Source of the DNA: Patescibacteria group bacterium
GTDB taxonomy: Bacteria > Patescibacteriota > Minisyncoccia > UBA6257 > HR35
Assembly (NCBI GenBank): GCA_030549845.1
Contig: JAUQQN010000001.1
Location: forward strand, 6,879-70,878
Direction of reading: 5' to 3'
Length of the DNA stretch: 64,000 bases
Shown here: piece by piece, positions 20,598-46,244 of the stretch
How the letters are laid out: every line of letters starts with the position of its first letter
How positions within the stretch are numbered: the stretch's first letter is position 1
The notes under the pieces: model-generated
What the model was told of the DNA's origin: nothing
Seen by the model: the letters and a program-made list of their open reading frames with translations, nothing else
Databases searched by the model: none
Program-made: the position numbers and the translations under genes

Positions 20598-20624
20598 AAT
20601 TTTGGTAATCAGATTACGAAAATT
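20598..20624. repeat. P1 palindrome copy A (TTTTGGTAATCAGATTACGAAAA)
   Basis: Perfect inverted repeat 11+1+11; ~80 bp upstream of the efflux operon start and downstream of the GxxExxY gene. Confidence 0.9.
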
Positions 20625-20686
20625 CGTAAATAATTATTATCTAGAAACGATCAATTTCTATACTCAAGTTACAAAAATATAAGTTT

Positions 20687-21154
20687 TTAATCATTATGAT
20701 TCTCTAATTTTATTTCTGCAATTTTTAGACCTTTATAATTTTTCACCTCTGCCTTCAGTTGTCCTGATGGTTTTGTAAAATTAAAAACAAAACCTATTGG
20801 ATAAAGTTCTTCGTTATCTTTTAATTCCTTTCTTAGTTCTTGCATATACCTTTCAACTTGTTTTTGGCTATCGATCTTAAGCTCAGAAATAGACTTTAAC
20901 TCAATAATTATCGCGATTTTTTTCTTTCCTTTTGTATACCAAACTATTAAGTCAGGGGCTCCTCTTCCAACAACATAACCATTAAAAGTTATAGGTAATG
21001 TTCTTTGAGCTTCATATTTTATTCCTTTCTCTCTTAAAGCTACTTCCATTGCTTTTTGATAAATATCTTCTTCCCAGCCTGCGCCTAATTCCTCATAAAC
21101 CCTTGCTGCACATTCTTTCAATTCATTTATTAATTCTTTAATCCCTTTCTCCAT
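20687..21154 (-). CDS. GxxExxY-family protein (PD-(D/E)XK nuclease-like)
   Basis: GWEEDIY signature near N-terminus, ~155 aa as for TIGR04256-type proteins. Confidence 0.65.
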   Translation of the reverse strand: MEKGIKELINELKECAARVYEELGAGWEEDIYQKAMEVALREKGIKYEAQRTLPITFNGYVVGRGAPDLIVWYTKGKKKIAIIIELKSISELKIDSQKQVERYMQELRKELKDNEELYPIGFVFNFTKPSGQLKAEVKNYKGLKIAEIKLENHND

Positions 21155-21294
21155 TTTTTTATTTTTTAAATTAATCCTTCAATCTTTCTACTTTGCTTTT
21201 TTTAATAATCTTTTAATAATTTATACTTTTTCTTATTTTCGTATGATTTTTAAACCAAATCAGTAATTTTTATTGGATGAATTTTTGAAACAAT

Positions 21295-21317
21295 TTTGGT
21301 AATCAGATTACGAAAAT
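21295..21317. repeat. P1 palindrome copy B
   Basis: CAATTTTGGTAATCAGATTACGAAAAT; promoter-proximal to the GxxExxY gene. Confidence 0.9.
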
Positions 21318-21365
21318 GATTAATTCCTGACTTTTTTAAATAATTACTGGAATATTTAATTGCTT

Positions 21366-21409
21366 ATAATCTTGTTTCATTAATTTAATTTTATCACTTT
21401 TTAGGAAAG
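21366..21409. repeat. Duplicate of the mod promoter and first 7 codons ('box' copy 1)
   Basis: ATAATCTTGTTTCATTAATTTAATTTTATCACTTTTTAGGAAAG matches 46173-46215 with 2 mismatches. Similarity extends ~8 nt further 5' (TTGCT[T/C]ATAATCTTG). Encodes a remnant MKQDYKQ... (mod begins MRQDYEQ). Confidence 0.85.
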
Positions 21410-21436
21410 TTTTAGGTTGGCAGATAGAAAAACAAT

Positions 21437-21459
21437 TTTGGTAATCAGATTACGAAAAT
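21437..21459. repeat. P1 palindrome copy C
   Basis: TTTTGGTAATCAGATTACGAAAATACGTAAATAAT, same extended flank as copy A. Confidence 0.9.
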
Positions 21460-21508
21460 ACGTAAATAATGTTATATTGCTAAAAAGAAAGTTATTAGTT
21501 GTTAGCTT

Positions 21509-22510
21509 CTAGTTTTTTAATAAATAGTCCCGAATCAAAGGAATTAAACGCTTCCATTTAGGTGGTAATTCTTTCCCCAAAAATGCAAAAAGATTCTCTT
21601 CGTGAATGCTATTTTGTAATATTTCTCTAAGTTGTTCCTCCTCTTCTTCTGTTATAATCCTATTTACTTTAGCTTCTTTTACAATTTCATCTATATCTTG
21701 CTTATTAAGTTTAATCTTTTTCAATCTCTCTTCGTTTTTAATTTCTTGGATTTTTCTTCTTACAGCCTCGACAGAACCAAGATTAATCAACTGATCTTTT
21801 ATTTGTTGCTTTTTAACTTCATCTGCTTGAAGGCTTTGCAGAAATTCATCAATAATCATATAACATTCCCAAGCTATTATCATATTTATAAAACCGGTAA
21901 AATCAGACAACCCTTCGGAATTTAATGAACCCGCAATATCAAGAAAACAAGCAGTAAAAAACAAATTAATATCTATACCTTTTTCTATAATATGTTTCTC
22001 GAAATTTCTAGCTGAACTACTCTGGTTAAATATTTGAAAATACACCTCGTGGCTTGAAATTATTTTTAAAAGCTGTTCATTTCTATTAATAAAATCATTT
22101 ATTTCTTCTTCTTGAGCAAATTCTTGGATAATCCTTACCCCTTCTTCGCCATGATCTTTATTGCCAATACGGTAACTAATTTGTGTATAACCTTCACTTT
22201 TCAAAACTTCTAAAGCTGCATCACTATTTCCATTAGTCCTTTGTAAATACTCTTGCCATCTATCCATAGTAAAAGGCGTTTGATTTTTTTGAGAATCTAT
22301 GATCATCATACAATTCAATTTGCCTATATCATGTAGATAAATAAACCATAGTAATTGTTCAAATGAATTTTTGACAGTAGTGGTTATTATGCTAATAACT
22401 CGATTTCTAAGTTCCTCTAATCCTGGAGGGAATTTTAAGATACTAAAATCAAAAGAACCTCCCTTAATTTCTTCTAGGGCTTGAATCATTAGACCAATAT
22501 GAGCAGCCAT
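21509..22510 (-). CDS. HD-domain phosphohydrolase-like protein
   Basis: LWFIYLHDIGK (H..HD metal-binding motif); in-frame open extension continues to 22651 without an ATG, so the true start is uncertain. Confidence 0.55.
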   Translation of the reverse strand: MAAHIGLMIQALEEIKGGSFDFSILKFPPGLEELRNRVISIITTTVKNSFEQLLWFIYLHDIGKLNCMMIIDSQKNQTPFTMDRWQEYLQRTNGNSDAALEVLKSEGYTQISYRIGNKDHGEEGVRIIQEFAQEEEINDFINRNEQLLKIISSHEVYFQIFNQSSSARNFEKHIIEKGIDINLFFTACFLDIAGSLNSEGLSDFTGFINMIIAWECYMIIDEFLQSLQADEVKKQQIKDQLINLGSVEAVRRKIQEIKNEERLKKIKLNKQDIDEIVKEAKVNRIITEEEEEQLREILQNSIHEENLFAFLGKELPPKWKRLIPLIRDYLLKN

Positions 22511-22968
22511 TACAGGACCTTCACTATGATAAGGACCTAATTGAGGAATATTTAAAGATTCTTCAACAATCTCTCTTAATTTTTGGGGTATTTTAATATC
22601 TTGAAGTTTTTCTCGAGCTAAATTAATCCAACTTTCTATATTTTGTGCTGTTAATTTCCGTGAGTCCTTTGAGCGATTTTCTTAATGAGGTTGTGGTTTA
22701 TAAATTTCGGATTGCATTTAAAAATTTATACAATAAGCTTGTAAAGTTTTTTTTGCTTAACCTATTGATGACGAAAATTTTATATAGAGTTTTCTCGGTT
22801 ATTTTTCTCTCTTTTCTTTTTTCAAGAATTCCAAATTTTTCTTCACATAAAACTCCTTTTATTAAATCCTCAAGTATTGCATTATTATATTATAACTTAA
22901 TTATTAATTAGCACAATTCTTTTTCATTACTTAACCAGTTAATTGATTTTTCGTCTTTTTCGTAAGTC

Positions 22969-22992
22969 TTTTTCGTAATCAGATTACAAAAC
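22969..22992. repeat. P1 palindrome copy D (degenerate)
   Basis: TTTTTCGTAATCAGATTACAAAAC. Confidence 0.8.
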
Positions 22993-23047
22993 CTCAAATG
23001 CGACAAATAAATCCTTTTTCTCAAGAGGCTGAGAAATTAATTATAAT

Positions 23048-23863
23048 TTAGAGAATTATTCTTAAATCATCATTTTTTAAGATAATATTTTTTGTTTTAA
23101 GGTCGAGATATATTTGAATAGCTTTGATTTTTATATCTTTCTTTTTAGCAATTTTAAGTAATTTATAGATTTTTTCATCAGCATCCTTATTTGGTTTAAA
23201 AGCATTAATATTTTTAATACCTGCGATAAAAAGGATAATTGAATTTTTTGGTTTTCTTATTAATTCTTTAATATGTTTTTGACCCCTCAAAGAGGGACAG
23301 TCAGGATACATAGCAAGATTATCTCTTTTCATTACAGCACTTTTAATTTCTAAATAATATTTTTTATTTTTGTATTGAACTAAATAATCAATTAGAGAAT
23401 TATTTAATTTTATATTCTTTTTCAATATTTTTGCTCCTTTAAGCCATGAAATCAAATTTTTTTCAACAGCAATTTCAAAACATTTCATTTGAAGTAAAGT
23501 ATCTATTATACTTGCTGAGTTTTTGTCTTCTTTAATAAAGGAAAGTCTATATTTTGTTTTTTTAGGATTTTTTAGAGGGGAAAGATAACCAATTTTTCTT
23601 TTAATTAAAAATTGTTCTAATCTTCCAGTATTATTTAAAGAAGCTTTAGTAATTTTATTATTAATTTTTACCTCGATAACAAATCTATTTACTCGTCTAA
23701 CAATTTTAGAGGGGATTAAAGAAGGGATTTTTAAAATGCTTCTCATCAAACAAAATTCTATTATAATTAATTTCTCATTATCTTGAGAAAATAAGGAAGA
23801 TTTTCGCTCTGCGCCGTTTTTACGCTGTAAAGCAATTTTTAAGTAATCTGAAGAAATATTCAA
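23048..23863 (-). CDS. sfsA: SfsA-like (sugar fermentation stimulation protein A family; nuclease-fold DNA-binding protein)
   Basis: YLEIKSAVMKRDNLAMYPDCPSLRGQKHIKELI matches the SfsA core (Y.EVKSVTL......FPDAPTERGQKHL.EL); N-terminal RFV.EV.....TKA...NTGRL. Confidence 0.7.
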   Translation of the reverse strand: MNISSDYLKIALQRKNGAERKSSLFSQDNEKLIIIEFCLMRSILKIPSLIPSKIVRRVNRFVIEVKINNKITKASLNNTGRLEQFLIKRKIGYLSPLKNPKKTKYRLSFIKEDKNSASIIDTLLQMKCFEIAVEKNLISWLKGAKILKKNIKLNNSLIDYLVQYKNKKYYLEIKSAVMKRDNLAMYPDCPSLRGQKHIKELIRKPKNSIILFIAGIKNINAFKPNKDADEKIYKLLKIAKKKDIKIKAIQIYLDLKTKNIILKNDDLRIIL

Positions 23864-23882
23864 TTAAATCCTACCAAATATT

Positions 23883-24914
23883 TTAATAAACCTGATTTAA
23901 TTCCAAATATGCTAAAGTTGCAAATGAATAAAGAAAAGTTTTAAAAATACCTGATAATAAAAGAACCCCTCCGAAAACTAATGTGCCTAATATAATTCCA
24001 ATTATAATTCCTGCTATAGGTGAAATAAAATATAACCCTATAACAAGCATTATAATAATAAAAATTGTAGGGGAAAGAATAAAATATTTAATTCCTGTTT
24101 CCAGAGCCATATATATAAGCCAAGTTAATAAAACATTTTTAGGATTAGCAAATAATAATCTTCCCGCATTCTTTAATGAACCCAAAGCTCCGTTATTTTT
24201 TATTACAATAAACCTTTCAGCAAATATATGTAATATAGAAAGATAAGCTAAGATTAATAACCATAAAATAAGTGAAATTATTCCTACAAAAATAGAAGCG
24301 GGGACATTTCTTGTAGTAAAATTAAAGTAGAGAAATAGTAAAACAAAAAGTAATAAACTAAAATCACCGAGAAATGAAATAATTAACTTCAAAAAGAACA
24401 TTCTGAAGAAATAATGAGCTCCATCTTTGAATAATTTTCTAAAATTTATTTCTTCCTCTTTTTTAATATTATTTACTCCAGAAATCAATGCAGTCTTTGA
24501 TATAAAACCTAGGATTATAAAAATTAAATAAATTGCAATTAGAATAAATATTATTTCTATATAATCCCACCAAAGGCGCCTTAAAATACTTATATAAGGA
24601 TCTTCTAAAATCAAGCTTTTCGCAGTTTCTAAACTATCATATGGAGGGTATATTGGTAATGTCTCTTTTAAAGATTCATGAATAGATGCTAAAAATTTTG
24701 TTGACCATATTGGAGGCAGAAAAAGAAGAGGGAGATTCAAAAACCCTTCTTGCTTAAATTCCTTTAATATATTTAATATATCATTAATATCAATTAAAAA
24801 TCTCAAATCAATAAAAATAAACTCTAATAAAAATGCGAATATTCCAAAGATCCAAAGAAATTTATACTTAAATGTTATTTGCCAAGCTCTTGAAATTATA
24901 TAAGAATAATTCAT
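23883..24914 (-). CDS. Hypothetical polytopic membrane protein
   Basis: ~8 hydrophobic helices, no recognisable motif. Confidence 0.45.
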   Translation of the reverse strand: MNYSYIISRAWQITFKYKFLWIFGIFAFLLEFIFIDLRFLIDINDILNILKEFKQEGFLNLPLLFLPPIWSTKFLASIHESLKETLPIYPPYDSLETAKSLILEDPYISILRRLWWDYIEIIFILIAIYLIFIILGFISKTALISGVNNIKKEEEINFRKLFKDGAHYFFRMFFLKLIISFLGDFSLLLFVLLFLYFNFTTRNVPASIFVGIISLILWLLILAYLSILHIFAERFIVIKNNGALGSLKNAGRLLFANPKNVLLTWLIYMALETGIKYFILSPTIFIIIMLVIGLYFISPIAGIIIGIILGTLVFGGVLLLSGIFKTFLYSFATLAYLELNQVY

Positions 24915-24958
24915 TTATAGAATTATAGAACAAATCAATTCCAAATTTCAATTTAATA

Positions 24959-24981
24959 GTTTCGTAATCAGATTACGGAAG
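24959..24981. repeat. P1 palindrome copy E
   Basis: GTTTCGTAATCAGATTACGGAAG, ~45 bp upstream of the 23883..24914 gene start. Confidence 0.85.
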
Positions 24982-25066
24982 ACATGTTATTTTTAGAAGA
25001 AAAATTACAAAAAAAATTTTATTTATTTAAGGGCACCTCTAGAATTTTTAAGTTCTTTTAATCACT

Positions 25067-25089
25067 TTTCGCAATCAGATTACGGAAGA
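25067..25089. repeat. P1 palindrome copy F
   Basis: TTTTCGCAATCAGATTACGGAAG, ~58 bp upstream of the 25147 (+) gene. Confidence 0.85.
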
Positions 25090-25146
25090 GAGGACTTGTT
25101 AAAATAATTTTAAAATAATTTTAATGTTAAGATAATTTTAAGCAAC

Positions 25147-26166
25147 ATGGGAAATTTTGAAAGACAATTTATTTCAGGACAAAAAAGACAGGAACGAAAA
25201 AAATCAGAAATAAAAATTACACCAGAACAAAAAGAAATTTTAGAATCTGCAGTAAAATTTGCTGAATATATAGTATCTCGTTTCCCTCAGATTGATGAAA
25301 ATCGTAGGATAATAATTGAAGTCAGTGAAGAAGGGCCTACTGTCGAACTTCCCGAGATGCCGGAATTCATAGAAACAGTATTGATGATGTTGAATTACTA
25401 TTTTTCCGGTTCTTTAGCTACAATGCTTTTATCGATGGCTGAGCAATTTACTGAAATAGATGAAAGCGAACTGCCTGGCATAAAAGAAGGTCAAACCCGT
25501 ACTATTCCAGAAAGTGCGCGAGAAATCTTAGCAACTTTTGCACGCCCTATAGGAGATTTAGATTATGTTCCTACAGATTTCTATGAAGGGAAAAGAGCAC
25601 ATGTTAGAAGTCTTTATGGAAAAGTAAGTAGTGAAGAATATCAAAAATTGTGCGCTAAGTTTTTGTGGAAAGGTGGTAGTATAGGGTTTGATGAAATTCC
25701 GGAGGAAGCATCTAAATGTCTTAAACGAGAAGCAACACAATTGAGAATATTCGTTGATCCTCTTGAATGTTATGGCGTGAAACGAGTTGCAAAAATTGTG
25801 GTTGCTGGAAAAGAATATTTCATAGCGAGACCGGATGCTATGTTTGCTTATAAAGTTTTACATTTGTTGCAAGCGTATGAACAAAAGCCGGAAAAATTTA
25901 ACGCTGATTTTAGTAAATTGTTTTCAGCTATGAAGGAAATTTACAGTGAAGACGAATTACTACAAACAGTTTTTCAAGTTCTTAAGGATTATGAAAATGC
26001 TATGGAAGCTTCTCATCGCAGATGGCATGAAGCCCTAGGTTATGAAAAGCCATACAAATCCGAAATCCCGGCTTTTTGTAAAAAAATTTTAGGCAATCCA
26101 AGCATTACACCCGAGATTAGATATGTTATTGAAGAAATTCAAAAAAAATTTACCGTCAAAGAATAA
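25147..26166 (+). CDS. Hypothetical protein with locally elevated GC content (cassette-like, flanked by P1 copies F and G)
   Basis: 339 aa, no recognisable motif; visibly more G/C-containing codons than neighbours (e.g. GAAGGGCCTACTGTCGAACTTCCCGAGATGCCGGAATTC). Confidence 0.5.
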   Translation: MGNFERQFISGQKRQERKKSEIKITPEQKEILESAVKFAEYIVSRFPQIDENRRIIIEVSEEGPTVELPEMPEFIETVLMMLNYYFSGSLATMLLSMAEQFTEIDESELPGIKEGQTRTIPESAREILATFARPIGDLDYVPTDFYEGKRAHVRSLYGKVSSEEYQKLCAKFLWKGGSIGFDEIPEEASKCLKREATQLRIFVDPLECYGVKRVAKIVVAGKEYFIARPDAMFAYKVLHLLQAYEQKPEKFNADFSKLFSAMKEIYSEDELLQTVFQVLKDYENAMEASHRRWHEALGYEKPYKSEIPAFCKKILGNPSITPEIRYVIEEIQKKFTVKE

Positions 26167-26202
26167 AATCTTACATATCCTTCAGCCACCAAAAATCTAC
26201 AG

Positions 26203-26225
26203 TTTTCGTAATCAGATTACGAAAA
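26203..26225. repeat. P1 palindrome copy G
   Basis: TTTTCGTAATCAGATTACGAAAA, perfect; sits between convergent gene ends. Confidence 0.9.
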
Positions 26226-26273
26226 TTTATTGTAATTGTAAGTAGTTTTAAAAATAAATTTTTTGTATAAAAT

Positions 26274-27539
26274 CTATAGACCAAATTCTGCTGGAAGGTT
26301 GTTTAAGATGAATTCTTGTGGTTTTTCTGTAAAAATAATTCTTTTTCCTAAAGATTGTGCAAAACCAATTTCTAAAAGAGCTGAAGCTTCAACATATCCA
26401 TCTGGATCGCAAACTATTAAAGCATCAGAGTTAATAATTGAGTTTAAATGGTAACGTTCTAATTCTAATGGAGATAAACCTTCCTTGCCGCTAAAAATTA
26501 CGAATTCTTCTCCAGGATTTTTAGGTTCAATAAACCTTGGACTAAGAACTTTAACTCCAGAAGCTTCTAATTCTTTCTTTATTTTCAAAATGTAATCTAG
26601 ATGTTTTCTAAAACTCCCACTTAAAGTTACATACCTAAACTCTTGTCTAATAACACCATTTATCAAATTAGAATCTGATGGAATAATTTTTAAAATCCCA
26701 TACTTTTCGCATATAGCTTGCGAAATAGCCGAAAAAGCTCTTGCCCCATGCATCCATTTTGGATTATCTGGCATTAAATCTTCAAGTTCTTTTAAGGTTA
26801 TCTTTTCAAAAATTTCCTTATTTTTAATTTTGTAATCATCAATTGTAATCAAAAAAGGATGATCTTCATCTTCAAATAAATTATTTTTTTGAAGTGGATA
26901 ATCGGCTAACTTCATATATGTTAATTCTCCTCCTGTTAAGAAGGCAATTTCAGATTTATTATCTAATACCGGAAGTTTTGACTCCACAAAATTTACAATT
27001 TCATCTAACTTTGTCCTAGATATATTTTCATTAATCTCAGGAAATTTAGTTAAAATTGTACCAACTCCTATGTCTAGATTCTTTCTTTCAATAGCTTCGT
27101 CGCCATACATTACTACTAATTCAGTCGTTCCTCCGCCAATGTTAATAAGCAAAATAGGTTCTTTTAAACTACATTTTCTTATTAGCGCCTTTTCAAGATA
27201 AAAATTTTCTAACTCCTGACTTATGATATTAAAATACAACCCCGTTCTTAAAAAAACTTCATCAATAAAATCTGTTTTAGTCGCTGGAGCTAATTTTCTA
27301 AAAATTCCTGTAGCATAAATTTTTATCTGGGCATTTCTATTTTGTGCTTTTATTGCATCCAAAAGTTCGAAAAGTTCTTTTTTAGATTCTGGCGAAATTC
27401 CACCTTCAGGGTCAAAATTTTCTTTAAAAAAGATGGAACGTTTTAATAATAAACTTAATTTTTGACCAGAATATTTATAAACCTTAATAGTTGGAGAACC
27501 AATATCCAAAAGAATTTTTTCCATATTTATAAAAAACAA
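26274..27539 (-). CDS. Fusion protein: Ppx/GppA-like (ASKHA) N-terminal domain plus nucleoside 2-deoxyribosyltransferase-like C-terminal domain
   Basis: N-terminus LLDIGSPTIKVYKY...ATGIFRKL resembles the Ppx/GppA phosphatase fold. C-terminus DALIVCDPDGYVEASALLEIGFAQSLGKRIIF resembles the NDT/LOG-like motif (Y.G.S...E.G.A.A.GKPI). Confidence 0.5.
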   Translation of the reverse strand: MFFINMEKILLDIGSPTIKVYKYSGQKLSLLLKRSIFFKENFDPEGGISPESKKELFELLDAIKAQNRNAQIKIYATGIFRKLAPATKTDFIDEVFLRTGLYFNIISQELENFYLEKALIRKCSLKEPILLINIGGGTTELVVMYGDEAIERKNLDIGVGTILTKFPEINENISRTKLDEIVNFVESKLPVLDNKSEIAFLTGGELTYMKLADYPLQKNNLFEDEDHPFLITIDDYKIKNKEIFEKITLKELEDLMPDNPKWMHGARAFSAISQAICEKYGILKIIPSDSNLINGVIRQEFRYVTLSGSFRKHLDYILKIKKELEASGVKVLSPRFIEPKNPGEEFVIFSGKEGLSPLELERYHLNSIINSDALIVCDPDGYVEASALLEIGFAQSLGKRIIFTEKPQEFILNNLPAEFGL

Positions 27540-27654
27540 AATTTGATTAATTTAACAAATTGCTAATCTTTTATGAAAATTATATCAAGTTGCAAATTAA
27601 AAAGGTATAATAAATAAGCTAAAATGAAGAATGAATAATTACAAAATCCTACAG

Positions 27655-27677
27655 TTTTCGTAATCAGATTACGAAAA
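27655..27677. repeat. P1 palindrome copy H
   Basis: ACAGTTTTCGTAATCAGATTACGAAAATTTATT; flank identical to copy G over ~35 nt. Confidence 0.9.
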
Positions 27678-27954
27678 TTTATTAGGTTATAAATGGAGAG
27701 AACAAAATAAAAAGCAACTAAAAAAGCAAAGATAATTAAAATGAAAATAATCTTTAGGTTTTAGAACCAAGAAAATTAACTTAGGACTAGTTTTATATTC
27801 TGGAGTAAAGTAAATTTGAACAATAAGAAAAAGAGAAAAAGAATAAAATTAAAACAATTAAAAAAGCTAAATATATTGGTTTTCGCAAAGGCTTTATAAA
27901 TATTTGAACATCCATTCAAATATTATAAATTAAAAAAATTTTTCTTATCAAGTT

Positions 27955-30243: not shown

Positions 30244-30340
30244 TAAACTAAAATTTGAAAAAGAATGCTAAGTAAAATTAATAATAAAAAGGTTATTACT
30301 AGTCTTTGATAAGGAAAAGCCCTTCCCTGACGAAGTTGAC

Positions 30341-33287: not shown

Positions 33288-33641
33288 ATGAAAATAATTT
33301 ATACTATTGGGCATTCAACAAGAAAATTAGAAGAATTTATTGAGCTTTTAAAGAATTTTAAAATTGAAGTTTTAATAGACATTCGTCATTTTCCCCATTC
33401 AAAACATAATCCTCAATTTAACAAAGAAATTTTAGAAAAAGAATCACCGAAAGAAGGAATAGATTATCTTTGGCTTGAAGAACTTGGCGGATTTAGAAAG
33501 GGAGGTTACTTAGCTTACACTGAAACACAAGATTTTAAAGAAGGATTAAGAAAACTTACAAAAATTACTGAAGAAAAAGTAACCAATTTTCGTAATCAGA
33601 TTACGAAAATTTTAGGAATTCATTGCAATTTTAGGTTTTAA
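33288..33641 (+). CDS. DUF488-family protein, C-terminally truncated/replaced by a P1 palindrome copy
   Basis: N-terminus MKIIYTIGHSTRKLEEFIELLKNFKIEVLIDIRHFPHSKHNPQFNKE is canonical DUF488. The usual C-terminal ...CAE...CHR segment is absent; the last 17 codons are encoded by the P1 repeat (33587-33609) and its flank. Confidence 0.6.
   Translation: MKIIYTIGHSTRKLEEFIELLKNFKIEVLIDIRHFPHSKHNPQFNKEILEKESPKEGIDYLWLEELGGFRKGGYLAYTETQDFKEGLRKLTKITEEKVTNFRNQITKILGIHCNFRF
33587..33609. repeat. P1 palindrome copy I (inside the DUF488 3' end)
   Basis: CCAATTTTCGTAATCAGATTACGAAAATTTTAGG. Confidence 0.9.
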
Positions 33642-34719: not shown

Positions 34720-34755
34720 CTTAATAAAAAATAATTTTATAAAGATTTCTCAATT

Positions 34756-34777
34756 TTTGTAACCTGATTACGAAAAT
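34756..34777. repeat. P1 palindrome copy J (degenerate, ~40 bp upstream of gene start 34719)
   Basis: TTTTTGTAACCTGATTACGAAAA. Confidence 0.8.
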
Positions 34778-36083: not shown

Positions 36084-36275
36084 TTATAAATTTTACATTT
36101 ACAATGCTATAGCATTTTAAATTTACAGCCCTTTCAGTAAGCATAGTTTTTTAAATGTGGGCTCATTTTTGAAGGTAGGCTAAGGATTTTAAATTTACAA
36201 TGCTATAGCATTTTAAATTTACAATTCTTTTTAAATAAGCATATTCTTCGAAGGTGGGTTAGAATTTTTCAGAAG
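36084..36275. repeat. Two ~96-bp tandem units, each with TTTAAATTTACA direct repeats flanking the palindrome AATGCTATAGCATT
   Basis: Palindromes at 36103-36116 and 36199-36212; unit tails share TAAGCATA...GAAGGT.GG.TA. Lies in a 560-bp spacer upstream of the 34934..35983 gene. Confidence 0.8.
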
Positions 36276-37230: not shown

Positions 37231-37313
37231 AAGTTTTTTAAATTAAGAATTATATAACCTTAAAAAACTAAAAATAGTATTCAAGATAAAATTGAATTCA
37301 AAAATAATTATTT

Positions 37314-38015: not shown

Positions 38016-38329
38016 GGAAAAACATTTTAAATTTCGACATATTCCAATTTTTTAATTATAGAACAATAATTTAAAAAATCTAATAATTTTTATCATTAAT
38101 CATTCAGCCAACAAAAAAGGCCTTAAAATTCCTTAGTCATTGTTCAAATTTATTTTCTCAATTTCTAGAGAAAATAAGAAAGGTAAATTTTTAAAATTTC
38201 TAAAGTAAATTTTTAAATTTTATAAAATACCTTTTTAATTTCGGCCTTTTTGAATAAATTTCGCAATAAAATTTTTATTTTTCAATTTTGGTTAGTATAT
38301 TTTTAGATACCATGTTTAAGCTGTTTTAA

Positions 38330-39142
38330 ATTTATTATTATTTTTGATCTTTAATACATCCAAAATCTTTTTTTCTAAGTTTTTATTCCAATTTTCTATA
38401 TCGGTTAATTTATTAATAAAATCAACTAATTTGTAATATTCTATAACAAAACAATTATCTAACCCCTGAACATTTTCTATTTTTCCATTTACAAAAACAA
38501 CAATTGGGATTGTTTTTATATTGATGTTATTATCCTTTAATAACTCATTTAAAAAAATTCTCTTTCTAAAATTTGGCGAATCGGATTTTTATAATAAAGT
38601 TTATATCTCATTTTACCTTTTTCTTTGCGATATAATTCTTGACCACTAACCCTAAATAATCCGTGGTAATTTTTAATCTCTAATAAAATTATTCCTTTAG
38701 GCCCTATTAGTATTCCATCAATATCACCTGTCTCTATATTGGATAATTCATAATTTTTAATATAATTGGATAATTCATAATTTTTAATATAAACATATTT
38801 ATCACTCAAATGTCTTTTTAAAAATTTTATAACCCTATTTTCTCCTTCTTCGCCTTTTATCAAAGAGTCTAATTTATCAATTAAACTATCTAAATACTCA
38901 AAACCTCCTAAAATAGAAAATAATAAAAATACAATTAAAAAGAAAATTGCTATACTGGAAAAGAATTTTTTGACAGGCTCTAAGAATTTAAGAAATTCTG
39001 GTAATGGTACTAATGAAAAAACGCCTGTAAAAACAAAAATAAGCAAAAATACTAATAAAAGTAAAAGAATAATTGTTGGTTTATTGCCAATTTTTTCAAG
39101 TTCTTTGGCGAGGTATGATTTTTGATATTCTATTATCCTCAT
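38330..39142 (-). pseudogene. NERD-domain protein with N-terminal TM segments, interrupted by a frameshift at an A7 tract (38551-38557)
   Basis: Track ORF 38549..39142 ends ...QILEREFF*. The adjacent frame continues LNELLKDNNINIKTIPIVVFVNGKIENVQG... (canonical NERD continuation) to a stop near 38330. Removing one A from the homopolymer fuses the two parts. Confidence 0.6.
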
Positions 39143-39252
39143 TTATAAAAATCAAATATAAACATATTTTTATCTCATAAATTGACTTTAAAAAAATTTT
39201 TATTTTGATACATTGATTATCGTAGTTTTTATCTCGATTAATTTATTAAACA

Positions 39253-42144
39253 TCACAACTTGCCTTTTGTAAAATTTACAATGTTTTCTAAGATCTTATC
39301 AAAATTTTCAAACCAATAATCTTTATAGCCGGAAGATCTAACTCTATCTTCATCTTCTGTGTATAGAAAACAAAAAATATAACAATTTAGATTTTTGTAT
39401 TGGAATTTTTTAGGCTTATTTTCTTCTTCGAAAATTTCTTTATATCCTAAAACTTTATCTTCAAAATTCCTATAACTTGTACTCTTAGGATCAACAAAAA
39501 CTATATAATAATCATTCCCTCTCTTAAGCCAAAAAATAAAGTCTGGTTTGAAGTTTTCAAACTGGGATTTTTCATAATTATAGTAAGGAATATAGACATC
39601 ATCTAAATTTTCATCAATTTTGCTAAATAACCACCAATCAAAATTATTGAATTTACTTTCTTTACTAGCAATATATTTTTCTAACTCTTCTATAAATTTA
39701 ATCTCGCTTTTAGTTTTTATTATATGTTTTATATATTCCACTCTCTCATTTCTTTGCAAAATCAAAGGAAGATAATAATGTTGAGGAATGTATTTTAAAT
39801 CTAATTCTCTGCCATATACTGAAGTTTTTTTATTTTCAAATACATTCTTTATTAAATTTTCAAAATTTTTAAAGTCTGCTTCTTCTAATTCAACAATAAT
39901 TTTTTTATAATGCTTTATCTCATCCTTTAATTCTTCAATATTTTCTAATTCTCTTAATTCTTTATTCCAGAAATTAAAAATATTATTCAAAACTACTACG
40001 GGATTTTTGACAATTGACTGATCTACAAATTTGTAAAACTGATTTTCTCTTTCAAAAGAATTTTTAACAAATTTCAAAAGTTTAGGCTCAACATTGTAAT
40101 TAACTAACAAAATTCTTTCATCTTTAATAAATTCGTAAAATTCTCTAACCAAACTCAATTCATCTCGTGATAATTTAAACCTTGATTTTACTTCACTTTC
40201 TTCAAATAACTTTTTATCTGCAAGCTTGTATTTAGGAATTAAGAGAATTTTATCTTTTATAATTTCTTCATTTTTAAATAGACGAAGTTCTTTTTTAGCT
40301 TTTGTTTCTTTTTTAAACTCTTCTGTTTCTTTTAAGATCGTCTCCAATGCTGATTTGTTAGTGCCAAATATAAATAAAGTTTCTATAGAAGGCACAAAAT
40401 CTTTAATTTTTTGAAAAACATCCTTAAACTCTGGATCTAAATCTATATATATTCCTCTTTTCCTTTGATTTTTAACAGGTTCAATTCTTACCCCTCTCCC
40501 TATTGACTGCAAAACAAATTTCCTAGCATTTTTCTGCGTGCCAATATTTATAAACATTATTATATTCGGCCTATTGGAATCCCATCCTTCATAAAATACT
40601 CTTGAACCAAGTAAGATGTTTACTGAAGATTCTTCATCATTTACCCTTTCAAAAAATCCTTCATTTTCGAATGTATGATTTACTTCAAAATTCAATAACT
40701 CATTTTTAAGCCAATTTGGCATTTGTCCGGTTTTACTAAGACAAAAATGAGAATCTGATGTTTTTAATTTAAAAGCAACTTCACTATTATTTGAAGGATT
40801 AAAAGATATTTCTATTTCTCCAGGTTTTTCCGAATTAAACACATATCTTAAAATATCTCGGTAATTTATTGATTGTAAAAGTTGGTCATCAAATTCAATT
40901 TCCTCGTTTGGCAGTATATATTCCTTTTTATTATTTAATTCTTCTATAATTTCATTTTTAGCCTCTTCAATAATTTTTTCTTCTACTTTTCCTTTCCCTA
41001 TCTTCTCTAATTCTTTAAATATTTTCTTTAAATCAGCTAATTCATTATCAACAGAGTTTACTAATACTAAAATTAATGGCTTATGATATAAATTGGTTTT
41101 GATTTTTCTAATCTCTTCAAGATTCTTTTTAATATATGTCAAAAGAATTAATGCTTTAAGAATAATTTTTTGTTTAGTTAAATCATCAAAATCTTCTTTA
41201 TTTCTAAAAGCATCAATATCTCTTTCGAAAATATAAATTTTCTTACCGAATCCTTTTTCAATAAAACTTGAAAGATTAAATTCATAAACGCAAGTTACTA
41301 AATCTCTAATATCATCAAAAGTCGCTGAAAAATTAAAAAGAAAACCATTTTGTGAAAGAATAGAATAGATATGTTGTCTTTTTGATTCATCTTTGTCGCC
41401 TTTATGAGCTTCGTCCAAAATTAAATACCATTTACCTTCATTATAATAATTTCTAAAATCTATAATTTTTTCTTTCTCTTCATCGCTAAACAAATCTGAT
41501 CTATAATAAAAAACAATATTTTCTTTAAAAAGTTTTAAAGAAGATTTTATTTTCTCATAATCCTTAAAATTACAAAGTTCAATTCTATTTTGTATATTAA
41601 ACTTATTATATTCATCTATGTGCTCTTGAAATTGCTTTATTAAATCTTCCCTATGAGTCAGAAATAAAATGTCATAATCAGGTATTTCTCTTCTTTGAAT
41701 CAAATTTTTGAGAATTTCTATAAGTTTAATAATCACCAAAGTCTTTCCGCTCCCAGTTGCCATCCAAAAACTCATCCTATTAATGAAATGCTTAAAACTT
41801 ATCTCGTTATTTTCTAACTCGTAATAATCAAAAATAAATTTATGCTTTCTTTCTTCCTTGTATTTATGAGAAACTTCTTGAGGATTTAAGCCCCAATCTA
41901 AATATTTTTCATACAAAATTTTCTTTCTTCGCTCATTAATTTCTAAATTTTCATTTTCAAAATAGTCATACTCTTTATCATAGTAGAACCATAAAATTTT
42001 TAAAGCATTCTCTAGAGCTTCTTTTTGAAAATCATAAAGTTTTTTATTCTCAGAGAAATTATCTAAATCAAAATTCTGCCAATTAAAAGATAATTGATTT
42101 TTATCAATATTTTCAGCTATTTTTTGAAGAATTAACTTTGCCAT
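39253..42144 (-). CDS. res: Type III restriction enzyme Res-like subunit (SF2 helicase plus C-terminal PD-(D/E)XK endonuclease)
   Basis: Motif I MATGSGKT, motif II ILDEAHKG, motif III NFSATF, motif VI QSIGRGVR; C-terminal KPDFIFWLK...YIVFVDPK nuclease motif. Confidence 0.75.
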   Translation of the reverse strand: MAKLILQKIAENIDKNQLSFNWQNFDLDNFSENKKLYDFQKEALENALKILWFYYDKEYDYFENENLEINERRKKILYEKYLDWGLNPQEVSHKYKEERKHKFIFDYYELENNEISFKHFINRMSFWMATGSGKTLVIIKLIEILKNLIQRREIPDYDILFLTHREDLIKQFQEHIDEYNKFNIQNRIELCNFKDYEKIKSSLKLFKENIVFYYRSDLFSDEEKEKIIDFRNYYNEGKWYLILDEAHKGDKDESKRQHIYSILSQNGFLFNFSATFDDIRDLVTCVYEFNLSSFIEKGFGKKIYIFERDIDAFRNKEDFDDLTKQKIILKALILLTYIKKNLEEIRKIKTNLYHKPLILVLVNSVDNELADLKKIFKELEKIGKGKVEEKIIEEAKNEIIEELNNKKEYILPNEEIEFDDQLLQSINYRDILRYVFNSEKPGEIEISFNPSNNSEVAFKLKTSDSHFCLSKTGQMPNWLKNELLNFEVNHTFENEGFFERVNDEESSVNILLGSRVFYEGWDSNRPNIIMFINIGTQKNARKFVLQSIGRGVRIEPVKNQRKRGIYIDLDPEFKDVFQKIKDFVPSIETLFIFGTNKSALETILKETEEFKKETKAKKELRLFKNEEIIKDKILLIPKYKLADKKLFEESEVKSRFKLSRDELSLVREFYEFIKDERILLVNYNVEPKLLKFVKNSFERENQFYKFVDQSIVKNPVVVLNNIFNFWNKELRELENIEELKDEIKHYKKIIVELEEADFKNFENLIKNVFENKKTSVYGRELDLKYIPQHYYLPLILQRNERVEYIKHIIKTKSEIKFIEELEKYIASKESKFNNFDWWLFSKIDENLDDVYIPYYNYEKSQFENFKPDFIFWLKRGNDYYIVFVDPKSTSYRNFEDKVLGYKEIFEEENKPKKFQYKNLNCYIFCFLYTEDEDRVRSSGYKDYWFENFDKILENIVNFTKGKL

Positions 42145-42179
42145 TTATTAAATTTTAAAATTAGGATTTATTGTTGCTG

Positions 42180-42956
42180 TCATATAATTAATTTTTCTAA
42201 AATATTCCTATCTAATCTCTTTAAATATTCATTAACATAAAAATAGTCTGGTTCTTGTTTAATCGCTCTTGTTATTATTCTAAAAGCTTTATCTAAGCCT
42301 ATATCTTCTTTCAAAACTTGATTGACATTGAAAAGAATTAAACCTATTCCAAATCTTAAACATAAAGATTCTAATCTACTTAAATCAACCTGAGATATTG
42401 TCTCTGGTAATACTAAATAAACTTTATGACTAAATAATTTATAAGAACAAGCTTGACCAAAAGCAATAATTGGCTGATTAGTATCTATTTTAATTTCAGC
42501 ACTAATTATTTCTGGTAATGGTTCAATTATTGATGGCTTCGAGATTTTATAAATTCCTAAAACATCTGGAGTACCCCATCTATCTCTAAACACACTACCT
42601 CCTAATGGTATAGTTTTTGTACATCCTTCTAATTCTTGTACTAAATAATCAGCAAATTTTTGATAGATTGTCTCTTCTCTAATTTTTGTTTCTTCTTCAA
42701 ATATTTTTTCTTCCTTAAGATTTTCATAAAATTTCCTTAAAATATAGAGCCCTCTTTCTGGTTTTATTACATCTTTGATTTTTTTATCTAAATTCCATAT
42801 TTCCCATTGAATAAGTTTTAATTTAATTTCTGGATATTCTTCGTAAATTTTATTTACTAATTTAGAATACCTTATTCCTTGAGGTGAATTTTCTAAAATC
42901 TCCAAAGCTTTTTCTCTTATTGCTTCCTGTTTTTGTTTATGGGTTAGTTTTTTCAT
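42180..42956 (-). CDS. Hypothetical protein with possible PD-(D/E)XK-like core, embedded between mod and res
   Basis: GTPDVLGIYK ... SAEIKID (PD...E.K pattern); N-terminal helical/wHTH-like region. Overlaps the upstream gene by 20 nt, so co-transcribed. Confidence 0.4.
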   Translation of the reverse strand: MKKLTHKQKQEAIREKALEILENSPQGIRYSKLVNKIYEEYPEIKLKLIQWEIWNLDKKIKDVIKPERGLYILRKFYENLKEEKIFEEETKIREETIYQKFADYLVQELEGCTKTIPLGGSVFRDRWGTPDVLGIYKISKPSIIEPLPEIISAEIKIDTNQPIIAFGQACSYKLFSHKVYLVLPETISQVDLSRLESLCLRFGIGLILFNVNQVLKEDIGLDKAFRIITRAIKQEPDYFYVNEYLKRLDRNILEKLII

Positions 42957-43626
42957 TTTTATAATTTAAATACTTCAAAAGATATATAAAATCCTCTTTA
43001 ACACCAACAATTTCACTAATACTCATAGGGGTAATATTTTTTTTCATAACAATATGTAAGGATAATGTATGATTACTAGGTTTAATTTTCATTGTTTTTA
43101 TTTGAAAATATTTTAATATTTCATTAAACATTTTTTGAATATAATCAATTATCTCTTTTAATTCATCTATGATGTCATTAAATTTAATAACTGATAATAT
43201 ATCTACCGCAGATAATTTTTTATTGATATCTATATGGGCTACAACCTTATTTACAGTTTTTAAAATCTCATTAATTTCATTGTTTTTATATTTATCAATT
43301 TCTGATTCAATTTCTTTTAATTTCTGCACATCTTCCAATAAATTTTTGTGTTGGAATTCTTTAGAGAAATAGATTAGGGGAAAATATAAAGAATATACAT
43401 CATCTCTTTCTCTTTTATCGAAAATTTTTCTTATTTCTAATAAAGTTATTAAAAGAGTGTTGATAACAAACAAAATAAAAAAATTTCTAAATTTTTTTAT
43501 TAGAATATGATTCCTATATTCTTCTAGTACATTTAAATTTGTTTTAACAAAAGCAATTTCTTTTGCCAAAATATCTTTCCACTCTTCCAGTTTTTTAATT
43601 GCATTTTTATTTAAAATTTCTTCCAT
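42937..43626 (-). CDS. Hypothetical protein with one TM helix and coiled-coil regions, embedded between mod and res
   Basis: FRNFFILFVINTLLITLLEI hydrophobic segment; starts 4 nt after the mod stop. Confidence 0.4.
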   Translation of the reverse strand: MEEILNKNAIKKLEEWKDILAKEIAFVKTNLNVLEEYRNHILIKKFRNFFILFVINTLLITLLEIRKIFDKRERDDVYSLYFPLIYFSKEFQHKNLLEDVQKLKEIESEIDKYKNNEINEILKTVNKVVAHIDINKKLSAVDILSVIKFNDIIDELKEIIDYIQKMFNEILKYFQIKTMKIKPSNHTLSLHIVMKKNITPMSISEIVGVKEDFIYLLKYLNYKNEKTNP

Positions 43627-43630
43627 CTTT

Positions 43631-46186
43631 TCACCACCAAATTAATTTTTTAATTTCTGGCAAATGTTTTTCTAATTGATTTAAACTTACTTTTTCTCCA
43701 TCTTCAAATTCAACTTCATTTTCTGAAATTTTTTTAAGCCACTTGCCTTTTAAACAAGAAAGTGTTTCAGCAATATCTACATTTGAATAAATTTTACTAA
43801 AATCAATTTTTATCTTGTTATTTTCATAATTAATTTCTAAGGCTTCTAACATTTTAGGGTCAGCCATAAATATATAATTAAAATCTTCTTTAAATAATTT
43901 AGGTGATTCTTTTTCAGTCAAATATTTTGCTTTATCCAAAATATCTGGAAATTGCTCAAGTTCATAATATTTGAAAAATCCACCTGCTTTATCTTCGTTA
44001 TATTTTTCCTTAACATCCTTTTCTTTTGATATTCCAAATTTATCATAAGCTAAAACCTTTTTCATTCTTGGTAAAACTACTGTATAAAAATGCTCTCCCA
44101 TCTCTACACCAATCCATTTTCTTTTTAGTTTATGTGCTACTGCTGTTGTTGTGCCACTTCCTAAAAAGAAATCCATAACTAAATCGTCTTCGTTGGAAGT
44201 AGATTCTATGACACGTTTGAGAAGGATTTCAGAGTTTTCGGTAGGGAAACCAGTTGATTTGGATATAACGTAAGTGTAGCCTAAAATATCTGTCCAGTCA
44301 TTATTTACAGGAACCTCTCGTCTTAAATAGAAAGCATCAAACTCCCTAGAGCTACATTTTTGACAACAGAGAATCTTTAGATTAGGATCAGTATTTTGAT
44401 ATTCCCATCCACAATTCTTACACACGATTTTTATATTTCCTTTACTTATTTCAATTTCTATTCTCTCTTGAGAAAATTGCCAATGAGTTCCTTTTGGTGC
44501 TTTAATAATCATTCCCCAAAATACCCGTGTTGGTTCTCCTCGTTCCCCAGGGAAAAACATTATTGTCCATTCTAGCTTTTCGTCAGGTTTAGGTCTTAAA
44601 GGTATAGTTATGGTTGCTTTTTGTTTATTCACGGAAAAAAATATTAAGCTTTCTGTATCATTTTCAAATTTATTTCTCTCTTTACTCTCAGTTCTCTTTC
44701 CTTTTCTTACTATTATCTCATTCCTAAAATTCTCCTTTCCAAAAATCTCATCCATCAAAGGTCTTACAATCCAATTCCCATTGTAATCACATCTAACAAA
44801 AATACTTCCTGTATCTTTTAACAACTCTCTTGCAAGCCTTAGTCTATTTTCAAGCATTGTAGCCCAGGTGGAGTCTTTGTATTTTACAGAATAGAAATAA
44901 TCTGCTTCTTGTTCTTTATTAAATGGTGGATCGATATAAATAGTTTGCACTTTTTCTTTAAATTTTGGTAAGATTGTATTTAATGCTTGATAATTTTCGC
45001 TCTTTATTAACCAACCATCTAAATTTTCATCTAAATTATCAAAAAGGCTTAAAATTTCAAGTTCTAAATCTTTAAAGTATTTTGTATCTATAGGTAAAAA
45101 TTGATATTTTTTGTTTAAATTTTTGCCACTTAAATCTTTTTGAATGATTTTATTTTTGTCAAAATCTTCATCAATTATATTTAATTCTTTCCATTCTTTT
45201 ATTTGTTCACTAAAATTTTTATGATTTATTATCTTTTCAATAATTTGGATTCCCTTTTCATGATTTTGTTTTACTAATCTATCTAAAGTGATAACATAAT
45301 TCGAATTTAAAACAAATCTTGGTTTATTCCATATTTTTACAAGTTCATCCTCAAATTTAGAGACAAAATCAATAATAAATTCTGCGCATTCCCTTAACTT
45401 ATTTATCTGATCGATTCTTTCTGGAGTATAATCTTGGTTAGTTGAGAAAAATTTATTATAGATAAATAGTTTTAATTGTTCGGTTAAAAAAGCTTTTGCA
45501 TTTTTATGAATAAAATAATCTATTTCTGATTGTTGTTCAAATTTTTTGAATGCTTTTTCTAAAATTTCTTCTGTTAACTTGATATTCTTGTTTTTAAATT
45601 TATTTTTTAATTTTTTGAGAATTTCATCTATTTTTGTTGTTTTCCCTTTTTCTGAATAATAAACTTTAAAAACAAATCTTTCTTCTGATGTTTGACTTTC
45701 ATCTAATTCATAAATAAGCTCTCTTTTCTCATTTGCTTTTTTAGCTTCAAGAGTTGAAACATCAAAGTAAAATCTAAATTCTTTATTATTTTCTTGTAAG
45801 ACAACTTCTAATGATTTATATATTCTATCGGTTTTAAGATAATAAAGATCACGGGTTTTCCAAAATAAAATTATGTCTTCTTTATCTGTATAAACCCTGT
45901 CATAAATTTGATGATAGTATGGAGTATTAACAAAATAGATTGATCCTGATTCTGAAAAATATCGAGAAAAGAAAGTATAAATTTTTTCAAAAAGTTCTTC
46001 CTTAAAATTTGGGTATTTCTTTAAAATTTCTTTTATTTTTTGTTCGAGCTTAGGTTTAAAAACTTCATCGTAATATTTCTTTTTAATTTTCATCAAATTT
46101 ATATAGCCACCAGTGCCCTCAATCTCAGCCCCAACAAACATATTAGTTAAAAGATTGTAAAATTTTTGCTCATAATCTTGTCTCAT
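43631..46186 (-). CDS. mod: Large beta-class N6-adenine/N4-cytosine DNA methyltransferase (Type III Mod-like) with Zn-ribbon insertion
   Basis: Motif IV IYIDPPFN precedes motif I VMDFFLGSGTTTAVA (beta-class order); CKNC...CCQKC zinc ribbon between them; 851 aa. Confidence 0.75.
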   Translation of the reverse strand: MRQDYEQKFYNLLTNMFVGAEIEGTGGYINLMKIKKKYYDEVFKPKLEQKIKEILKKYPNFKEELFEKIYTFFSRYFSESGSIYFVNTPYYHQIYDRVYTDKEDIILFWKTRDLYYLKTDRIYKSLEVVLQENNKEFRFYFDVSTLEAKKANEKRELIYELDESQTSEERFVFKVYYSEKGKTTKIDEILKKLKNKFKNKNIKLTEEILEKAFKKFEQQSEIDYFIHKNAKAFLTEQLKLFIYNKFFSTNQDYTPERIDQINKLRECAEFIIDFVSKFEDELVKIWNKPRFVLNSNYVITLDRLVKQNHEKGIQIIEKIINHKNFSEQIKEWKELNIIDEDFDKNKIIQKDLSGKNLNKKYQFLPIDTKYFKDLELEILSLFDNLDENLDGWLIKSENYQALNTILPKFKEKVQTIYIDPPFNKEQEADYFYSVKYKDSTWATMLENRLRLARELLKDTGSIFVRCDYNGNWIVRPLMDEIFGKENFRNEIIVRKGKRTESKERNKFENDTESLIFFSVNKQKATITIPLRPKPDEKLEWTIMFFPGERGEPTRVFWGMIIKAPKGTHWQFSQERIEIEISKGNIKIVCKNCGWEYQNTDPNLKILCCQKCSSREFDAFYLRREVPVNNDWTDILGYTYVISKSTGFPTENSEILLKRVIESTSNEDDLVMDFFLGSGTTTAVAHKLKRKWIGVEMGEHFYTVVLPRMKKVLAYDKFGISKEKDVKEKYNEDKAGGFFKYYELEQFPDILDKAKYLTEKESPKLFKEDFNYIFMADPKMLEALEINYENNKIKIDFSKIYSNVDIAETLSCLKGKWLKKISENEVEFEDGEKVSLNQLEKHLPEIKKLIWW

Positions 46187-46215
46187 TAATTTAATTTTAT
46201 CACTTTTTAGGAAGG
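46173..46215. repeat. Mod promoter / 5' end 'box' (copy 2, the functional one)
   Basis: ATAATCTTGTCTCATTAATTTAATTTTATCACTTTTTAGGAAGG; includes the mod ATG (CAT at 46184-46186). Confidence 0.85.
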
Positions 46216-46220
46216 ATCAG

Positions 46221-46244
46221 TTTTTCGTAATCTGATTACGAAAA
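46221..46244. repeat. P1 palindrome copy K (42 bp upstream of the mod start)
   Basis: TTTTTCGTAATCTGATTACGAAAA. Confidence 0.85.

Follow-up and report, generated by a model that had tools for sequence, protein, structure and literature searches.

Eleven clustered copies of an intergenic 23-bp palindrome in a Patescibacteria genome, possibly a repeat of the REP/BIME kind

The stretch of DNA analysed here, 64 kb of contig JAUQQN010000001.1 from a Patescibacteria group bacterium (hereafter the window), has a coding density of 89% and contains eleven copies of a 23-bp palindrome, TTTTCGTAATC-A-GATTACGAAAA, lying between 20.5 and 46.3 kb. The G+C content is ~27% throughout, and the palindrome-bearing stretch is compositionally not distinct from the rest. 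Its flanks are occupied by housekeeping genes (RecG, FtsE/FtsX, bacterial release factors and similar), and the genes among the copies encode a MacAB/HlyD-type efflux operon, a GxxExxY protein of the PD-(D/E)XK type, an HD-domain open reading frame (ORF), SfsA, a divergently placed membrane protein and orphan ORF, a Ppx/GppA-like protein, a csoR-copA copper operon, a DUF488 stub and an HExxH orphan (orf348). Farther along, a methyltransferase, Cas4-like and NERD nucleases, and a Type III restriction-modification operon with AbiU2 are found. A winged-helix protein is encoded at 42180-42956. Homologues of the window proteins are labelled Patescibacteria, Parcubacteria or Minisyncoccia. The five ~340-aa ORFs beside copies that lack a Pfam match are not paralogues of each other. 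Since it holds the Ppx/GppA-like protein (26274-27524, - strand, 416 aa), which is found at 70-84% identity across hundreds of Parcubacteria, the palindrome stretch, judged by its gene content, is not simply accessory.

The palindrome, whose search form is TCGTAATCWGATTACGA, was located with TTTTCGTAATCAGATTACGAAAA at up to three mismatches, and the 23-bp sites start at 20600, 21294, 21436, 22970, 24959, 25066, 26203, 27655, 33587, 34754 and 46222 (copies A to K, in this order). The number expected by chance, obtained from shuffles, is 0, and the 15-nt core with up to two mismatches recovers the identical 11 sites against 0.02 expected. In a symmetrised weight-matrix scan the 11 copies reach 31-39 bits and, because the next-best site in the 64 kb scores just 1.3 bits, decayed or weak copies can be said to be absent from the whole window, flanks included. 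The eleven positions given in the preliminary description are borne out to within 1-2 bp, but its statement that all copies are perfect was too generous: four are exact (26203, 27655, 33587 and 46222), and the other seven carry 1-3 mismatches. The perfect copies read T-TCGTAAT-CAG-ATTACGA-A, a symmetry of 11-1-11 in which the central base is the sole asymmetric position; it flips from A to T on the + strand in J and in the otherwise exact K (46222). One C->G change is common to A, B and C (20600, 21294 and 21436), and four copies (22970, 24959, 25066 and 34754) have 2-3 mismatches. The mismatches of the variant copies are not accompanied by a compensating change on the opposite arm and, pairing thus not being preserved, they look like drift in the copies rather than selection on structure.

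As had been described, all copies but one are non-coding. Ten of the eleven are intergenic, in the 11% of the window that is not coding, and the exception is copy I (33587), which lies within the ORF at 33288-33641 and replaces the 3' end of the gene; the extragenic confinement expected of repetitive extragenic palindromic (REP) sequences and bacterial interspersed mosaic elements (BIMEs) is therefore observed. Taking spacers of at least 40 bp, a copy is present in 8/14 within 20.5-46.3 kb vs 0/16 outside (Fisher p=5e-4). The proposal that the palindrome occupies nearly every spacer was thus too strong, the densest part being that from 20.5 to 35 kb, with a copy in 7/9 spacers, whereas its reported absence from the flanks is confirmed. 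The further claim that it marks an island holds in so far as the clustering in the window is significant, but composition does not set this region apart and a core gene lies inside it. Nine of the 11 copies are found downstream of a stop codon, and over 14 kb one- to few-gene transcription units are bounded by copies. Seven copies (A, B, E, F, H, J and K) lie 34-139 nt upstream of a start codon; C, D, G and I are placed otherwise.

Copy A (20600..20622, TTTTGGTAATCAGATTACGAAAA, 1 mismatch) is situated 76 nt upstream of the HlyD/MacA-like start at 20523 and 64 nt past the stop of the GxxExxY PD-(D/E)XK gene, and is adjoined by extra half-site-like direct repeats, TTTTGGTAAT upstream and TTCGTAAAT downstream. 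Copy B (21294..21316), bearing the G variant of A and C, lies 139 nt upstream of the start, at 21154, of the GxxExxY gene (20687-21154), which has A and B on its two sides; of its two flanks, the one not resembling C, GGAATTAATCA, is common to copy J. Copy C (21436..21458, G variant) is found directly upstream of a truncated mod copy, the mod' stub, and 50 nt beyond the point where the HD-domain ORF (21509-22510) stops. Copy D (22970..22992, 2 mismatches) follows the stop of SfsA (23048-23863) at 55 nt, the next start being 459 nt away; two tandem half-site-like repeats, TTTTCGTC and TTTTTCGTAAGTC, precede it. The first ~40 codons of the SfsA ORF (TTG start) fall outside the Pfam domains, and its true start is probably downstream. 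In the spacer at 22511-23047 (537 bp) the only reading frame is a low-complexity, GTG-initiated + strand 'orf88' (22645-22911); it matches no family and is probably spurious. Copies E (24959..24981) and F (25066..25088), each with 3 mismatches and a GGAAG end, are separated by 107 bp in direct orientation, and both lie in a divergent promoter region. The former is 44 nt upstream of the orf343 start at 24914 and 8 nt upstream of a -35/-10 pair with 11/12 matches, from which an apparently leaderless orf343 would be transcribed; the latter is 58 nt upstream of the orf339 start at 25147.

The copies reported at convergent gene ends are indeed there. Copy G (26203..26225, perfect) separates orf339 from the Ppx/GppA-like gene, which converge on it with stops at 26166 and 26274, respectively, and copy I (33587..33609, perfect) lies inside the 3' end of the DUF488 stub, 63 nt past the stop of the convergent orf348. 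Copy H (27655..27677, perfect) is found ~130 nt upstream of the Ppx/GppA-like ATG at 27524, upstream of the conserved TGnTATAAT promoter of this gene and 277 nt past the Cu-ATPase stop. Copy J (34754..34776, 2-3 mismatches, centre T on the + strand) is 34 nt upstream of the orf348 start, and the predicted -35 overlaps one of its arms. Finally, copy K (46222..46244, perfect) is 35 nt upstream of the Type III mod ATG, its centre lying ~47 nt upstream of a TGnTAAAAT promoter whose mod transcript is apparently leaderless.

Distances to promoters rely on hand-read extended -10 boxes, inferred and not measured, a promoter scan being uninformative at 27% GC, where automated matches appear at or below shuffle expectation. 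Read in this way, the centre of the palindrome falls at -47 for mod, -56 for orf343, -66 for orf339, about -40 for orf348, -89 for HlyD, about -95 for the Ppx-like gene and about -150 for GxxExxY, with no register common to these predicted promoters. In addition, a TATAAT/TGnTAAAAT box ending 7 nt before the ATG, without a Shine-Dalgarno sequence, precedes the - strand starts at 46186, 24914, 20523 and 35983, and its recurrence in several genes suggests that leaderless mRNAs may be common in this organism.

The sequences around the palindrome reveal how the copies are related. Copies G and H have 42 nt in common at 95% identity (unit 26190-26231), and A and C have 37 nt in common at 97%. Copy B combines a right flank common to C with a left flank common to J and I, although its match to C amounts to 'AAACAA' alone, while that to J extends over 47 nt at 83%; the extended flanks formerly attributed to A, B and C together are consequently retained for A/C, as they are for G/H, but not for B. 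Overall, the flanks are mosaic, being composed of 6-14 nt blocks in differing combinations; the triplet TTG directly follows the palindrome in 4 copies, and neighbouring copies are each other's closest relatives. From these common variants and flanks it follows that the copies descend from one another, flanks included.

Two gene remnants end at copies of the palindrome. The first is the mod stub (21348..21407, - strand), located between B and C, which consists of the mod promoter and the first ~13 codons and duplicates 46156-46213 at 90-96% identity, the duplicate being 60-75 nt long. Since the alignment of stub and mod runs on through the palindrome C/K and ~16 nt past it, a ~130-nt piece comprising flank, palindrome, mod promoter and 13 codons was duplicated and later truncated near B. 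The second is the DUF488 stub (33288..33641, + strand), whose Pfam match covers positions 1-89 of the 121 of the model. Copy I and its flank supply the last 12-19 codons, the gene being cut off exactly at this copy, as the preliminary description had noticed, and the missing C-terminus (C.E...CHR motif) was found nowhere in the six frames of the window. In a relative (contig L047) the gene order is GDH, orf348 homologue and csoR, with both DUF488 and the palindrome absent; this adjacency of orf348 and csoR indicates that the DUF488 stub and copy I are an insertion in the lineage studied here. Separately, a 135-bp direct repeat with 96% identity (50572-50706 and 54491-54625) consists of the last ~134 nt of a UPF0047 gene (54235-54624), copied into the spacer beside a SIMPL gene, and this gene fragment points to probable segmental duplication in this genome.

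Two contigs of a sister strain, from SRR27730019, allow the copies to be followed. One (L039, 97% identity) terminates within copy G and, towards copy H, 3 nt before it, which is the behaviour of a repeat longer than the k-mer of the assembler. The other (L046, 98.6% identity, gapless) reads through I and J at the matching places, which excludes an assembly artefact as the origin of the copies. Collinearity with the window is kept at all three sites that these contigs cover (G, I and J), and 1 change is seen in the 69 palindrome positions covered vs a background of 1.4-3%; this substitution falls in the core of copy I, copy J being identical. Extra constraint on the palindrome is not detected in this strain.

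In more distant relatives, neither the palindrome nor a near copy is present at nine Ppx-like orthologue loci (L034-L038 and L040-L043, 78-84% identity) or at three loci with an orf348 homologue (L047-L049, 58-62% identity). The neighbours of the Ppx-like gene differ in every locus fetched, and an upstream promoter/leader block recurs in L038 and L042. At the position corresponding to that of copy H, ~125 nt before the Ppx-like orthologue, the first of these has another palindrome, TCTATCGAAGTTCAACTTCGATAGA (7573-7597), which is perfect over 25 bp but different in sequence; the second has G+C-rich hairpins there. It can be added that the Ppx-like protein is also present in metagenome-assembled genomes (MAGs) labelled DPANN archaea, and that the TTG start listed for it (421 aa) probably lies 5 codons upstream of the true one.

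At least two further intergenic palindrome families exist in the window, with a placement mixed in the same way among divergent, tandem and convergent spacers. The second family has the core AACAAATAGTTCCGTACGGAATTATTTGTT in units of ~42-53 nt with 83-91% identity (5693-5745, 6468-6520 and 58444-58496). Two of its copies lie on either side of a PaaX_M/Cas2-like gene (5748-6434), where one occupies the spacer from which this gene and recG diverge, and the third lies between the convergent genes 57938-58417 and 58518-59507; this family could be the operator of the PaaX_M/Cas2-like regulator, a terminator, or another REP-like family. The third family is formed by two tandem ~96-bp units (36090-36161 and 36186-36258) in a 560-bp spacer upstream of orf349. 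Each unit contains the palindrome AATGCTATAGCATT in a 31-nt block, and this repeat has no match in Rfam.

Outside the sister strain, single matches, mostly due to chance, were all that came out of searching 185,579 species genomes, 241 million metagenome records and IMG/VR with the pattern; those on L019 and L028 were discarded because of their unrelated contexts, one being within coding sequence. BLAST searches with the palindrome and its flanks against plasmids and phages gave nothing below E=3, and literature searches on Patescibacteria repeats or LexA-type motifs gave nothing relevant. The sole meaningful match, and the only other exact copy, is on L004 (JAWAJM010000061.1), a 4.5-kb contig binned as Candidatus Aenigmatarchaeota, where 26/26 nt agree, flanks included. 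At 200 bp from this palindrome, the 31-nt block with core AATGCTATAGCATT, located at 36090-36230 in the window, reappears near-unchanged (L004 3666-3706). The proteins of this contig are orphans, the large one having a single orphan homologue and matching only collagen-repeat families. The region 3470-4077 has a consensus sigma-70 promoter (TTGACA-17-TATAAT), a GGAGG ribosome-binding site and a G+C-rich hairpin followed by a T-run terminator; judging by such signals, L004 is probably a mis-binned bacterial or mobile-element contig.

Taking all this into account, the reading to which we incline, while granting it somewhat less than an even chance, is that the palindrome belongs to the REP/BIME kind of intergenic repeat, is restricted to this lineage and has spread by duplication. 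Thus, a short sequence able to form a hairpin or cruciform would be copied or gene-converted mainly among nearby spacers, and its copies would act as breakpoints for local recombination. It can be proposed that the symmetric site, or the hairpin extruded from it, is recognised by an enzyme acting in trans from a gene outside the window, which would catalyse copying or strand exchange, candidates being an HUH/RAYT-type transposase (RAYT, REP-associated tyrosine transposase), a tyrosine recombinase or a structure-specific nuclease, and that recombination between copies would then duplicate, delete or re-join adjacent segments. The tight clustering, together with the close relationship of neighbouring copies, argues for short-range spread or gene conversion. 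Many copies would be located just upstream of promoters because surviving insertions lie in spacers, any effect on expression being secondary, and two of the perfect copies, G and I, are found where no promoter is expected, in a convergent gap and at a gene end.

Several observations weigh against this proposal. Target-site duplication is absent, and an empty-site/filled-site pair was not found among the loci compared. The GTAG/CTAC head of REP sequences is present at just 2/11 copies (CTAC adjoins G and H), and the copies are confined to 26 kb of the window, REPs being normally genome-wide. No transposase, RAYT, recombinase or other candidate enzyme was detected among the ~65 ORFs scanned in the 64-kb window, which also lack a Fur-family gene. 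Furthermore, the half-site equals that of a Zur box, several copies are immediately upstream of a predicted -35, and the perfect copy on the unrelated contig L004, with a second motif beside it, would fit a conserved protein-binding site equally.

The explanation that comes next after the REP-like repeat, although we consider it unlikely, is that the palindrome is the operator or activator site of one symmetric dimeric regulator, possibly of the Fur/Zur family or another winged-helix type and encoded elsewhere, which would co-regulate the flanking units. The 11-1-11 symmetry, the seven copies upstream of start codons, the overlap of J with a predicted -35, the proximity of E to another and the position of K upstream of a leaderless-type promoter would all be in keeping with such a function, as would the TTG that follows four copies, the direct half-site-like repeats beside A and D, and the recurrence of a perfect copy on L004. 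Moreover, the half-sites TCGTAAT/ATTACGA are identical to those of what we take to be the Firmicutes Zur box, TCGTAATnATTACGA, a motif supported by the primer AGCGTAATAATTACGATTTA used in an electrophoretic mobility shift assay (PMC6336718). Chromatin immunoprecipitation in B. subtilis has shown that Zur also binds many non-promoter sites (PMC4324032). However, the half-sites are separated here by 3 bp and not by 1, and the agreement stops at the half-sites themselves: the 7-1-7 spacing, a Fur-family repressor and a zinc-acquisition regulon are all missing, with no znu/adc, L31/L33-paralogue or COG0523 gene next to copies in the window. The flanking genes (efflux pump, nucleases, HD protein, mod, Ppx-like) do not form a recognisable metal regulon. 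The clearest non-promoter copies, G and I, are perfect and the most promoter-proximal, E, F and J, degenerate; promoter distances range from about -40 to -150, and there is no gradient of site strength and there are no weak sites. To this must be added the common descent of the copies, the truncation of DUF488 by one of them, and the absence of conservation upstream of orthologues, the site being missing from 12 loci in relatives and shared just with the 97-99% identical sister strain. The shared operator for a dimeric helix-turn-helix protein formerly suggested is, consequently, weakly supported: the upstream copies and the position of J on a -35 speak for it, but the perfection of G and I, the lack of a common register and the lack of conservation do not. 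Another regulator box, that of CodY, whose halves resemble the outer AATTTTC...GAAAATT, was dismissed since these halves are 13 nt apart here vs 1.

A second alternative, which seems to us quite improbable, interprets the palindrome as the core of a site-specific recombinase, with 8-bp arms and a 7-bp overlap (TTTTCGTA-ATCAGAT-TACGAAAA), bounding modules that could be excised, inverted or exchanged. In its favour, copies delimit one- to few-gene units, the mosaic flanks are those expected from crossover within the site, the mod and DUF488 stubs end at copies, and the central base, alone asymmetric, flips in J and K; the clustering also recalls integron attC arrays. In the outer 8 bp, TTTTCGTA, there is a likeness to the XerC arm given in PMC13141974 as ATTTCGTA(TAA), restricted to the outer 7 of 8 bases. 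Nevertheless, no recombinase is encoded in the window, the site is not 11-6-11, and it lacks the inner ATAA/TTAT bases of dif and the R'/R'' cores of attC. Collinearity with the sister strain is kept at G, I and J, no module was found elsewhere in a different context, and in other genomes the homologues of module genes have no palindrome around them. A more specific form of this idea, which we regard as very improbable, is that of a previously undescribed chromosomal module-shuffling system of a candidate phyla radiation (CPR) bacterium, with a symmetric 8-7-8 core and a single recombinase, by which transcription units including defence, metal-resistance and core genes would be excised, inverted or exchanged.

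Known mobile systems were also compared and rejected. For dif/pdif, the architecture is 11-1-11 instead of two 11-bp arms with inner ATAA/TTAT around a 6-bp spacer. In the case of a miniature inverted-repeat transposable element (MITE), the unit in common is 23-42 bp, lacking a body of 50-500 bp and any target-site duplication or flanking direct repeats. In integrons, attC sites have R''/L''/L'/R' cores with extrahelical bases and lie beside intI/attI, and the cassettes are mostly promoterless and co-oriented. Here, no GTTRRRY core, no 57-141 bp structure and no integrase in the window were found; promoters of their own are predicted for the units, among which a core gene is found. The MITE-like or cassette-boundary element formerly envisaged therefore fails in its two concrete models on their defining features, a duplicative, recombination-associated repeat being the better supported part of that idea.

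A function at the RNA level, in which a hairpin would terminate transcription or protect or process mRNA ends, is highly improbable. Perfect copies are predicted to form an RNA hairpin of 10-12 bp with -7 to -9 kcal/mol (z -2.8 to -4.6), nine of eleven copies come after a stop codon, and few canonical terminators are present in this genome. However, in the seven variant copies pairs are broken without compensation, the predicted energy being reduced to -4 to -6 kcal/mol, with z near background; E and F are in a divergent promoter region, where nothing needs terminating; and Rfam gave no match to the palindrome at the gathering or the E<=1 threshold. As an intrinsic terminator it was discarded, given that 4 G-C pairs are counted in the stem, that AAAA comes after it on either strand instead of a U-tract, and that a terminator scan detects no copy. 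Finally, it is most improbable that these are binding sites for a chromosome-organising or partition protein (like parS, the Noc-binding site (NBS) or matS), as identical palindromes dense in one region irrespective of gene orientation and an exact copy on another contig might suggest, since there is no likeness to parS (sites of the TGTTNCACGTGAAACA type do not occur beyond chance in the window), no parAB, dnaA or GC-skew switch is near the cluster, such sites tolerate the coding positions that these copies avoid, and the flanks and stubs would be left unexplained.

The interest of a REP-like repeat in this host lies in the nature of Patescibacteria genomes, which are tiny and streamlined and in which few repeats and regulators are usually described; here, at least three intergenic palindrome families occur in a single window. 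One of them is dense enough to break assemblies and to leave gene stubs, which suggests that repeat-driven local rearrangement contributes to the turnover of gene order in these organisms. Such repeats can also cause short contigs and mis-binning in MAGs, and the other exact copy is on a DPANN-binned contig. If, on the contrary, the copies were true recombinase sites or regulator boxes, they would open a way to study gene exchange in an uncultivated lineage, or one of its few regulons.

With respect to known systems, short palindromic extragenic repeats are of a well-known kind, and what is unusual is their dense clustering in a single region together with gene stubs. REP/BIME elements resemble the palindrome in being short (~20-40 nt), extragenic, species-restricted and located in tandem, divergent and convergent spacers, in having subfamilies with mosaic flanking motifs, and in breaking short-read assemblies. 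The RAYT gene of REP systems encodes a Y1/HUH transposase and is usually flanked by REPs; in contrast, the window contains no RAYT gene, conservation of the head is lacking, the copies are clustered, the palindrome is nearly perfect instead of imperfect, and the host belongs to the Patescibacteria, for which the literature searches made here yielded no description of repeats of this kind. The Zur box (7-1-7 / 9-1-9) is similar in its half-sites, A/T-rich outer flanks and length, but differs in the 3-bp spacing found here, in the lack of zinc-regulon genes and in the duplicative ancestry of the copies. The pdif sites of Acinetobacter are likewise short symmetric sites that punctuate self-contained modules, including metal-resistance and defence-type genes, and the outer arm bases, TTTTCGTA here, can be set beside ATTTCGTA in pdif; these sites, however, are 11-6-11, with distinct XerC and XerD arms, and plasmid-borne, whereas the palindrome is fully symmetric and chromosomal, with neither a recombinase in the window nor a mobile module among the loci compared. 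The attC sites of integrons, and the Vibrio cholerae repeats among them, offer a further parallel as clustered palindromic repeats between most genes of one stretch. A module-shuffling system, were the palindrome to belong to one, would be a functional parallel of dif modules and integron cassettes built on an unrelated site.

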